Below are positions 881 through 2,500 of a stretch of DNA of 13,478 bases, in pieces (positions within the stretch are counted from its first letter, which is position 1; each line of letters begins with the position of its first letter). The position numbers and the translations under genes are program-made. The notes under the pieces were generated by a model. The model ran no database searches, had not been told where the DNA came from, and saw only the letters and a program-made list of their open reading frames with translations. Source of the stretch: a virus; UHGV virus genome UHGV-1998854, one strand, 5' to 3'.

Positions 881-1639
881 TTAAATTCTGGTCCTTACAA
901 TATCAACCTGAAGATTCTTATCTTGTGCTGATTGATAAATCACAAACCTTTTACTACCTGCATTGAAAGAAGTAGACAAAACCAGACAATTATCATAGCG
1001 AGCAAGAACATAATACCAACCATCATTATAATTAATCATTTCATATTCTTTCTTAAACTGCGGTTTGTAATATCCTGTCAGAAATGAAAAAAGCCAGAAA
1101 TATGCCACAAAAGCAATCATCACAATCTCAAAAAAATGTTTTTTTATAAATGGCTTATCATAGAAGCATGATACCGATAAAAATCGCCCATAAGATCTTA
1201 TCGAAATTGTAACCGCCAGCGCAATCGCTGCTGACAGTAGCAAAAGAGGTACCTGAATCTTCTGTCTCAATATAGAAAACTCAATAATTGCCGGCACAAA
1301 CAATAATTCCACAGCAAAATAAAGGCGAAATACATTTAGCTCTTGCATAGAATGTTTTCTTTTCACTGCGAAAAAGAATACAACACCAATACCCCAACCG
1401 ATAAGAAATATAGCAATGACGATAACTGCAAAAAATAAACTTCTGGCAACATCATCAACACCTGCACCTACAATCCACCATGGGAAGCCGTAGTAAAAAG
1501 AAGTACCCCATCCATAGAAATAAGCACTCCCCCATCCAAGGCATCCCATGTAGGCAATAAAAAGTGAAGAACTCCTGAGCAGCGCACCATCCTTCATAAC
1601 CACCCCAATACAAGATGATAACATTGGCTTACAACTCAT
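881..1639 (-). CDS. Hypothetical multi-pass membrane protein (about 5 predicted hydrophobic helices plus a ~55-aa C-terminal soluble tail); accessory gene downstream of Q and pR'
   Basis: 252-codon ORF in visibly AT-rich DNA, where long spurious ORFs are unlikely because stop codons are frequent. Hydrophobic segments include LFFAVIVIAIFLIGWGIGVVFFFAV, LYFAVELLFVPAIIEF, VPLLLLSAAIALAVTISI and FFEIVMIAFVAYFWLFSFL. It starts about 160 nt downstream of the pR'-like promoter. No clear Shine-Dalgarno at the first ATG, so the true start may be an internal Met (M14 or M31). Confidence 0.5.
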   Translation of the reverse strand: MSCKPMLSSCIGVVMKDGALLRSSSLFIAYMGCLGWGSAYFYGWGTSFYYGFPWWIVGAGVDDVARSLFFAVIVIAIFLIGWGIGVVFFFAVKRKHSMQELNVFRLYFAVELLFVPAIIEFSILRQKIQVPLLLLSAAIALAVTISIRSYGRFLSVSCFYDKPFIKKHFFEIVMIAFVAYFWLFSFLTGYYKPQFKKEYEMINYNDGWYYVLARYDNCLVLSTSFNAGSKRFVIYQSAQDKNLQVDIVRTRI

Positions 1640-1805
1640 AACAAAAGCAATTCAATGCCGTCAAGAGGTTACAGGCTAAAAAAACTCTATTACATTGCAG
1701 TCAGCATGTTTACTACACAAATACAATTCAGAGCATAAAAACTACTCGGCGGCAGGTTATTGAGACTCATCAATGACATGTAAAAAACGCCCATTATTGG
1801 TGTCA

Positions 1806-1834
1806 AGTTTCCCCAAAGTTATTCAAAAAGTCAA
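1806..1834 (-). promoter_or_regulatory. pR'-like late promoter / Q-utilisation region downstream of Q
   Basis: Minus-strand sequence TTGACT-ttttgaataactttggg-GAAACT-tgacacc has a 17-nt spacer and closely resembles the lambda pR' region as I recall it (TTGACT tattgaataaaattggg TAAATT tgactcaacg). It sits about 45 nt after the Q stop codon. The -10 element is imperfect. Confidence 0.4.
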
Positions 1835-1876
1835 TATTATGCCGTTAATATGTTGCCATCCGTGGCAATCATGGCG

Positions 1877-2500
1877 CTAACGTGTGATCGCATTCAAAAT
1901 GTTGTCTGCGATTGACTCTTCCTTGTGGCATTGCACAACCAGAGCGTCATACAGCGGCTTAACAGTGCGTGACCAGGTGGGTTGGGTAAGGTTTGGGATT
2001 AGCATCGTCACAGCGCGATATGCGGCGCTTGCTGGCATTCTTGAATAACCGACGCCTTTACATCTTCCGCACTCTTTCTCAGCAACTATCCCCCACTGCT
2101 CTGTTTTGGCTATATCAACCGCACGGCCTGTACCGTGGCAATCTCTGCATCTTGCGCCCGGCGTAGCGGCACTACGGCAATAATCCGCATAAGCGAATGT
2201 TGCGAGCACTTGCAGTACCTTTGCCTTAGTATTTCCTTCGAGCTTTGCCACACCACGGTATTTCCCCGATACCTTGTGTGCAAATTGCATCAGATAGTTG
2301 ATAGCCTTTTGTTTGTCGTTCTGGCTGAGTTCATGCTTACCGCAGAATGCAGCCATTCCGAATCCGGCTTGTGATTGCGCCATCCCCATAGCAGCCATCA
2401 CATCAGTACCGGAAAGAGAGTCAGAAGCCGTAGCCCGTGGTGAGTCGCTCATCATCGGGCTTTTTGGCGAATGAAATTTAGCTACGCTTTCGAGTCTCAT
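1877..2500 (-). CDS. Q: Late-gene antiterminator Q (lambda Q type)
   Basis: 207-aa translation ([28 protein letters not shown]...[12 protein letters not shown]...[65 protein letters not shown]) is near-identical to lambda Q as recalled. Same length; 4-bp start/stop overlap with the upstream gene. Confidence 0.95.

Follow-up and report, generated by a model that had tools for sequence, protein, structure and literature searches.

Which kind of gene lies between the late promoter pR' and the lysis genes of the virus genome UHGV-1998854, directly downstream of the antiterminator gene Q, and when would it be expressed? The stretch of DNA analyzed here (the window; 13,478 nucleotides (nt)) carries at this place, on its minus strand, an AT-rich open reading frame (ORF), for which the original prediction had proposed a late-expressed polytopic membrane protein acting in superinfection exclusion, in modification of the cell envelope or as a non-canonical lysis factor. 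The explanation that best accounts for our observations as a whole, and which we consider reasonably probable, is that of a genuine inner-membrane protein gene of the TfpB family, carried in a moron cassette, probably expressed in the lysogen, and with a non-catalytic role in the envelope rather than a role in lysis.

The presence of a polytopic membrane-protein ORF directly downstream of Q and pR' was borne out by the reading frame itself, by hydropathy and by the helices of an AlphaFold2 (AF2) model. This ORF (881..1639, minus strand) encodes 252 amino acids (aa) when read from its first in-frame ATG, at 1639, as had been predicted; its true start, however, is almost certainly the ATG at 1597, which gives a product of 238 aa. 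The corresponding residue, M15, is the invariant start among 30 homologs of 237-238 aa, a Shine-Dalgarno sequence (GAGG/GGGG) lies 5-8 nt 5' of ATG 1597 and is kept in copies that are 45-68% identical, and PGAP places the gene start at the same codon. For every pair with estimable dS, dN/dS lies between 0.08 and 0.23, and purifying selection acts on 881-1597, which is an intact gene. A spurious ORF or a decaying pseudogene, which might be suspected from the AT-rich DNA, from annotations that mostly read 'hypothetical' and from the numerous fragment entries in databases, has next to no probability: length, start codon and Shine-Dalgarno sequence are kept down to 45% identity, the database fragments are mostly partial entries at contig ends, and the conserved start together with the low dN/dS values refutes such a reading. 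At the DNA level, the gene is matched in 1197 of 5426 complete E. coli genomes, with 679 at 99% identity or more, and O157:H7 strains are among them.

CPT_434_68 of phage 434, annotated as 'putative membrane protein' (OL657226.1), has exactly the sequence of the encoded protein (100% identity), and the lambdoid phage 2B8 has a protein with 98% identity to it. In PHROGs the window protein falls, at E 2e-154, into phrog_1521, a family of unknown function, and PF27470, whose label is TfpB, is precomputed in 108/108 homologs, 100%-identical proteins included; PGAP names the identical coding sequence (CDS) 'STM1630 family protein'. By these sequence assignments, the protein is a member of the small TfpB / STM1630 family (PF27470), and the gene, already catalogued as a phage 434 gene, as a Pfam TfpB member and as an NCBI 'STM1630 family protein', does not represent a novel type of system. 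Among 1.84 billion representative proteins, a profile search returned only 71 matches. Distant full-length members, with 20-29% identity, occur in Neisseria, Actinobacillus, Gallibacterium, Avibacterium and Pasteurella, and also in Moraxella, Mannheimia and Aggregatibacter. The Neisseria and Pasteurellaceae members are found, with E values of 1e-17 to 1e-41, by a profile of the window protein together with enterobacterial homologs, and the link to Moraxella is made in two steps, the Neisseria/Pasteurellaceae alignment retrieving loci of M. bovis, M. lacunata, M. equi and M. oblonga.

PF27470 bears the name TfpB because the M. lacunata homolog, which sits between the piv recombinase gene and type IV pilin genes, is the classical tfpB ORF of the pilin-inversion region. 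Moraxella tfpB is said to have been described by Fulks et al. in 1990 and by Rozsa and Marrs in 1991. The homolog of M. lacunata NCTC10359 (4001-4588 of its locus) is shortened, with 195 aa versus ~244 aa elsewhere, in agreement with what we take to be a disrupted tfpB in this species. Moraxella TfpB and the window protein have in common an N-terminal Y-x-Y-G-W-G...Y-G-(F/Y)-P-W-W motif and a C-terminal YY-(V/I)-L beta domain, but identity between them is ~20-29%, and the Moraxella gene lies between piv and pilin genes and not in a prophage. In alignments and in the AF2 model, the window protein displays the architecture of the whole family: a length of ~235-250 aa, an aromatic/Gly motif in the N-terminal part, several membrane-spanning helices and, at the C-terminus, a YYxL beta domain.

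No relative of known function, by sequence or by fold, emerged from the following searches. The protein had no match in a Pfam library without the PF27470 model, in NCBIfam or in PADLOC, and matched only families of unknown function in PHROGs. When 42 diverse members were compared to Pfam, noise only was obtained, the best being two members on bPH_10 (E 0.045). A profile search of PDB sequences found nothing, and a Foldseek comparison of the model to BFVD found nothing below E 1e-3. Known superinfection exclusion proteins (of the P22 SieA, T4 Imm or HK97 gp15 type) showed no sequence or fold similarity to the protein (PHROGs phrog_1521; Foldseek versus BFVD).

Hydropathy analysis identified four strongly hydrophobic segments and one weaker, N-terminal segment. 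The AF2 model, obtained from a 42-sequence alignment that includes distant members (pLDDT 79.5, pTM 0.73; an earlier model from a shallow alignment, with a pLDDT of 58.9, was unusable), places helices at residues 5-36, 47-78, 89-111, 116-136 and 155-181, followed by a five-stranded beta domain of ~55 aa (184-235). The most positive loops are 77-90 and 134-154, and their charges favor an N-in, C-out topology, in which the N-terminus would be cytoplasmic and the beta domain periplasmic, as judged solely by the positive-inside rule. Across the family only G175 is invariant, with A15, A25, Y26, Y28, G37, F167 and Y195 nearly so, and family alignments show no polar or catalytic residue conserved family-wide. 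Since conservation is confined to aromatic, Gly and Ala positions, the protein is read as non-catalytic, and not as an enzyme.

The DNA is that of a lambdoid prophage with its late genes on the minus strand. Upstream of the gene, positions 2586..1802 of the window are 96% identical to positions 43800-44584 of lambda, over Q and pR' up to approximately the transcription start (+1). Homology to lambda ends at pR' +1, and the cassette that follows has no lambda counterpart. The GC content is 31-41% over 750-1800 versus 48-53% in Q, in line with the marked AT-richness that had been noted, and the cassette DNA is compositionally foreign. The pR' promoter is not listed by the consensus promoter scan because its -10 matches at 3/6 positions; AATAAT-GGG at 1798-1790 presumably occupies the place of the lambda AACGAT-GGG qut pause signal. 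The distance from +1 is ~160 nt to ATG 1639, which is the spacing originally given, and ~200 nt to ATG 1597. The 217-nt leader RNA from pR' to the ATG has no unusual structure (z = +0.27), and Rfam gave no match across the whole window.

These data show that the tfpB-like gene is the first gene of an AT-rich moron cassette, which continues with a DUF3927/TciB-like gene, is closed by a strong terminator, and has pR'/qut on one side and the lysis cassette on the other, within the leader of the late operon. Besides its distinct base composition, the cassette has its own terminator (424..450, -16 kcal/mol), and its presence is patchy, as phages 434 and 2B8 carry the gene and lambda and 434B are without it. 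The identical protein and cassette are found behind both lambda-type and Q82-type Q/pR' modules, which, together with the end of lambda homology at +1 and the foreign GC content, upholds the proposal that the gene is cargo in the Q-to-lysis slot. The lambda-pR'/leader junction of the window is found in 572 complete E. coli genomes.

Positions 1758-313 of the window are 97.8% identical to phage 434, which has the same order of tfpB-like gene, TciB, small ORF and terminator upstream of its lysis genes, and whose record annotates terminators on both sides of the cassette. In phage 434, however, the cassette stands behind a Q82-like Q, with a promoter of the form TTGCAA-N17-TATACT and an intact terminator, whereas the window has a lambda-type Q/pR' and a decayed terminator; moreover, a NanS-p-type esterase lies between cassette and holin in phage 434, and here the holin comes next.

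Between the tfpB-like gene and the holin there are the TciB-like gene, ~600 nt and two terminators, at 450-432 and at 81-53. The earlier remark that no holin or endolysin is recognizable up to the left end is true of the window, but is an artifact of its edge: the window ends at the holin, whose start codon occupies positions 15-13, and for this reason contains no lysis gene. A genome stretch that is 100% identical to window 1-2600 continues leftward with the class II holin, the lysozyme RrrD and an Rz-like lysis protein. The TciB-like gene is present in 72/72 IMG/VR loci with sufficient flanking sequence; TciB as an obligate partner is ruled out by diverged copies of the tfpB-like gene that are without it. 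The literature on TfpB, DUF3927 and TciB yielded nothing functional. Two overlapping ORFs between tciB and the holin have been annotated differently, 158-556 (plus strand, 132 aa) by PGAP and 386-580 (minus strand, a ~62-aa 'putative membrane protein') in the phage 434 record, and both calls look doubtful because the strong minus-strand terminator falls inside both.

Does the gene take part in lysis? The protein has no similarity to holins, antiholins, endolysins or spanins in Pfam, PHROGs or NCBIfam. Phage 434B, a derivative that forms plaques and has DLP12 DNA (Q, nmpC::IS5, holin) in place of the Q-to-lysis segment, is without the gene (PMC9119081). Because 434B forms plaques without it and homologs stand alone on chromosomes, the gene is optional accessory cargo and not a lysis gene; with two terminators and a further gene ahead of the holin, the idea of a non-canonical lysis factor found no support. 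The cassette resembles the known morons between Q and S (stx, LT-II, nanS-p and the lc/nmpC porin), which occupy the same slot, have a foreign base composition, are flanked by terminators and are dispensable for lytic growth. It differs from them in that its product is not a toxin, esterase or porin, and in that the lambda-Q cassette seems to precede the first effective late terminator, and not to follow tR'.

This last point bears on the time of expression. The lambda pR' promoter is not under CI control, and without Q it gives rise only to a short RNA ending at tR'. In phage 434, the terminator ahead of the gene (AAACCCGCTGCCGAGTGGG followed by eight T) has a stability of -13.3 kcal/mol, versus -3.9 kcal/mol for its homolog in the window. 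Two promoter classes are seen among 72 IMG/VR loci encoding the identical protein: 43 have a lambda-type pR', of which 42 carry the decayed hairpin, and 29 have p82, all 29 with an intact terminator. As the upstream terminator is decayed in the lambda-Q version, Q-independent expression in the lysogen is likely, judging from sequence features. CI-independent transcripts from pR' would cover both genes of the cassette, tfpB-like and tciB, and end at the terminator (450-432), which would be the effective tR'. A candidate sigma-70-like promoter directly upstream could add to expression in the lysogen; the promoter scan lists its TTGTTA-N18-TGt-TATCAT element, and TTGAC(G/T) and TTTGT(T/A)ATG are kept 5' of 57-59%-identical copies in enterotoxigenic E. 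coli (ETEC) and in an island of uropathogenic E. coli (UPEC), where the surrounding sequence has diverged. Late in infection, Q would raise expression of the cassette and carry transcription on into the lysis genes, and, by analogy to the Salmonella orthologue, it is plausible that the AT-rich DNA would be silenced by H-NS and expressed conditionally. The description of the gene as late-expressed thus holds in part: with no competent terminator between pR' and the gene, and with the partly conserved candidate sigma-70-like promoter, expression in the lysogen appears at least as likely.

Table 1. Features of the tfpB-like locus, with positions in the window.
Feature	Position	Strand	Basis and remarks
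Q antiterminator, lambda type, 207 aa	1877..2500	-	Pfam PF03589 (Antiterm) E 1.2e-57; 96% nt identity to lambda Q
pR'-like late promoter	1806..1834	-	-35 TTGACT 1834-1829; -10 GAAACT 1811-1806; 17-nt spacer containing the Q-binding region; read from sequence, within the lambda-identical block
Probable transcription start (+1 near 1799/1798) and -10-like pause element, C AATAAT GGG	1790..1799	-	AATAAT-GGG at 1798-1790; read from sequence
Decayed remnant of t82-type late terminator, CTGC-CGCCGA-GTAG then five T	1737..1755	-	-3.9 kcal/mol; undetected by the terminator scan
Candidate sigma-70 promoters of the gene	1615..1664	-	TTGACG (1664-1659) N18 TGt-TATGAG (1640-1635); overlapping TTGTTA (1644-1639) N18 TGt-TATCAT (1620-1615); consensus matches only
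TfpB / STM1630-family inner-membrane protein gene, 238 aa	881..1597	-	phrog_1521 E 2e-154; Pfam PF27470 precomputed; 100% identical in phage 434; AF2 model; dN/dS
DUF3927 / TciB-like small membrane protein gene, 52 aa	637..795	-	Pfam PF13064 E 3e-14; phrog_1470 E 2.5e-17; annotated TciB in phage 434
Strong intrinsic terminator closing the cassette, GGCTGCGC-ATG-GCGCGGCC then eight T	424..450	-	-16 kcal/mol; annotated terminator in phage 434
Second intrinsic terminator, just 5' of the holin	45..81	-	-16.2 kcal/mol
Class II holin, first five codons (MYQME...), cut by the window edge	1..15	-	Start codon ATG 15-13; in the identical genome the holin CDS ends at position 8416 of the locus, corresponding to window 15

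Family members are also found in settings other than this cassette. Neisseria arctica and Avibacterium carry lone chromosomal homologs between housekeeping genes, and the Salmonella and C. rodentium copies are likewise lone chromosomal genes; such copies are remote from lysis genes. Diverged homologs occur behind a PF06530-type Q in Yersinia and, with LpxR, PmrD and NanS-p, behind a DUF1133-type Q in an Stx-type prophage. In the UPEC island, the homolog is near microcin genes and bor, and on ETEC contigs homologs adjoin eltAB and STb. The 59%-identical ETEC member (6001-6714 of its contig) lies ~870 bp from eltAB in divergent orientation, flanked by insertion sequences and with STb nearby, and has the appearance of a residual Q-to-lysis cargo region of a prophage, situated on a virulence plasmid. 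The Salmonella homolog adjoins sseJ, and that of C. rodentium adjoins LpxR at the equivalent locus. As a separate observation, the lipid A deacylase gene lpxR adjoins or neighbors a family member in three independent settings, namely phage 434 (L003 1166-2125), the Stx-type prophage, where pmrD is also present (L096/L097 ~5970-6919), and the C. rodentium island (L098 3863-4823), the latter being the same frmA/MCP locus that holds sseJ-STM1630 in Salmonella.

STM1630 of Salmonella is the only family member with any experimental data, and its phenotypes are weak or inconsistent. Like the window gene, it encodes 238 aa (46% identity), is AT-rich and horizontally acquired, and adjoins virulence cargo (sseJ); it is, however, a chromosomal island gene with its own mapped promoter and not a prophage gene. 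It is bound by H-NS and expressed in medium inducing Salmonella pathogenicity island 2 (SPI-2) and in macrophages, its signature-tagged mutants were attenuated in calves and chickens, and its deletion in strain 4/74 increased intramacrophage replication (PMC6785131 Text S1). It is also co-regulated with virulence regulons and with PhoP-type envelope genes such as ugtL, lpxO and pagD (PMC2639726). Hypermotility of a Salmonella STM1630 deletion, seen in a screen, was rejected, as a clean deletion did not reproduce it.

What would such a protein do for the lysogen? With low confidence, we suggest that its aromatic-rich interfacial motif and predicted periplasmic beta domain probably serve to bind or shield a component of the envelope, and that the lysogen would benefit by exclusion of, or immunity to, incoming phages or bacteriocin-type agents, or by adaptation to the host. 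A non-catalytic inner-membrane protein with a periplasmic domain that protects or adapts the lysogen envelope is put forward as a tentative possibility. A wider form of this proposal, which we regard as doubtful, is that, with the first late terminator decayed in the lambda-Q class (~570 complete E. coli genomes, including O157:H7 and O145), pR' would double as a lysogen promoter for an envelope cassette of tfpB-like gene and tciB, with a stop at a new equivalent of tR' before the lysis genes, and that TfpB represents a new class of non-enzymatic inner-membrane factors for protection or adaptation, common to phages, virulence islands, toxin plasmids and pilin loci.

Several points weigh against expression in the lysogen and an envelope role. 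The case for lysogen expression appears to depend on a weak hairpin (-3.9 kcal/mol) and on matches to promoter consensus sequences, the -10 of pR' (GAAACT) is poorer than that of lambda, and the region may be silenced by H-NS. The juxtamembrane KPQFKK that follows the last helix argues mildly for the reverse orientation of the protein. The pairing with TciB is no evidence of a functional pair, because co-occurrence is limited to a nearly clonal cassette, and no function is assigned to the protein by Pfam, NCBIfam, PHROGs, PADLOC, homology or experiment.

Other functions were weighed against the same observations. The gene could act strictly late and depend on Q, in lysis timing, in blocking superinfection of the dying cell or in preventing adsorption of progeny to debris, and be silent in the lysogen; its position in the late-operon leader behind four different Q types, and the competent terminator that precedes it in phage 434, agree with this. 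That phage 434B still forms plaques without it, that chromosomal homologs stand alone, the Salmonella one with its mapped promoter, and that in the window the upstream terminator is decayed and a conserved promoter-like element lies 5' of the gene make such a purely lytic role unlikely. The protein could also be an accessory factor of type IV pilins or pseudopilins, which, like TfpY/FimB, would associate in the inner membrane with subunits resembling pilins and would thereby change pili or type II secretion. The family is named after an ORF between piv and pilin genes in Moraxella, a context confirmed in M. lacunata, and the ETEC copy adjoins eltAB, the LT toxin being exported by type II secretion. 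TfpY-like proteins have a similar size (235-245 aa) and the same general plan, with transmembrane helices as an N-terminal membrane anchor and with a C-terminal, beta-containing domain in the periplasm; in some species they show linkage to pilin genes (PMC11841053). Compared by architecture, however, they have three transmembrane helices and a two-sheet domain, as opposed to five helices and one small five-stranded domain here (PMC11841053), and the Neisseria, Avibacterium, Salmonella, Citrobacter and phage copies are without pilin neighbors; we thus hold a pilin-related role to be quite improbable.

Remodelling of the envelope or of lipid A, in concert with outer-membrane modifiers such as LpxR, is suggested by the proximity of LpxR in the three contexts described above and by the co-regulation of the Salmonella orthologue with ugtL, lpxO and pagD. 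Its probability is equally low in our view, given that no polar or catalytic residue is conserved across the family, that the window is without LpxR, and that morons travelling together need not be functionally linked. The sporadic occurrence of a single-gene membrane protein in prophages and small islands could finally recall a membrane-acting effector of abortive infection directed against phages, and PHROGs labels the neighboring gene as related to colicin resistance / cell-division inhibition. There is, however, no PADLOC match and no sensor domain, and co-transcription with phage 434's own late genes fits badly with a suicide effector, so that this function is very unlikely.

The explanation that we prefer, an accessory envelope gene expressed in the lysogen, would be of consequence for enteric bacteria. 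Approximately one in five complete E. coli genomes carries a family member, O157:H7 prophages included, and copies stand beside the LT and STb genes in ETEC, beside sseJ in Salmonella and in an Stx-type prophage; assigning a function to the family would close a gap that recurs in the prophage maps of enteric pathogens. What appears most interesting in the locus is the proposed conversion of a pR' leader into a lysogen-expressed cassette through decay of a terminator. If pR' indeed drives the gene in lysogens, the locus would show how the leader of a late operon becomes a site of lysogenic conversion once a terminator is lost.

Other features of the window were observed in the course of this analysis. 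A 590-aa ORF (4871-6643, plus strand) lies on the opposite strand within the nin region, has a GC content of 28-39% and no match in Pfam, NCBIfam or PADLOC, and shares 99.3% identity with hypothetical proteins encoded by the Stx1-converting phages AU6Stx1 and SH2026Stx1. In the AT-rich spacer upstream of it, the ORF 4362-4622 (minus strand) contains a run of (IS) dipeptide repeats that corresponds to a short tandem DNA repeat, and is marked by PGAP as a frameshifted hypothetical gene. Just 3' of the cI-like repressor gene, in the rexAB position, two overlapping ORFs on the plus strand (12014-12556, 180 aa, and 12544-13320, 258 aa) show weak matches to the PADLOC candidate system PDC-M24A (E 1.5e-3) and PDC-M24B (E 6e-7), respectively, and may form a two-gene defence system in the immunity region.

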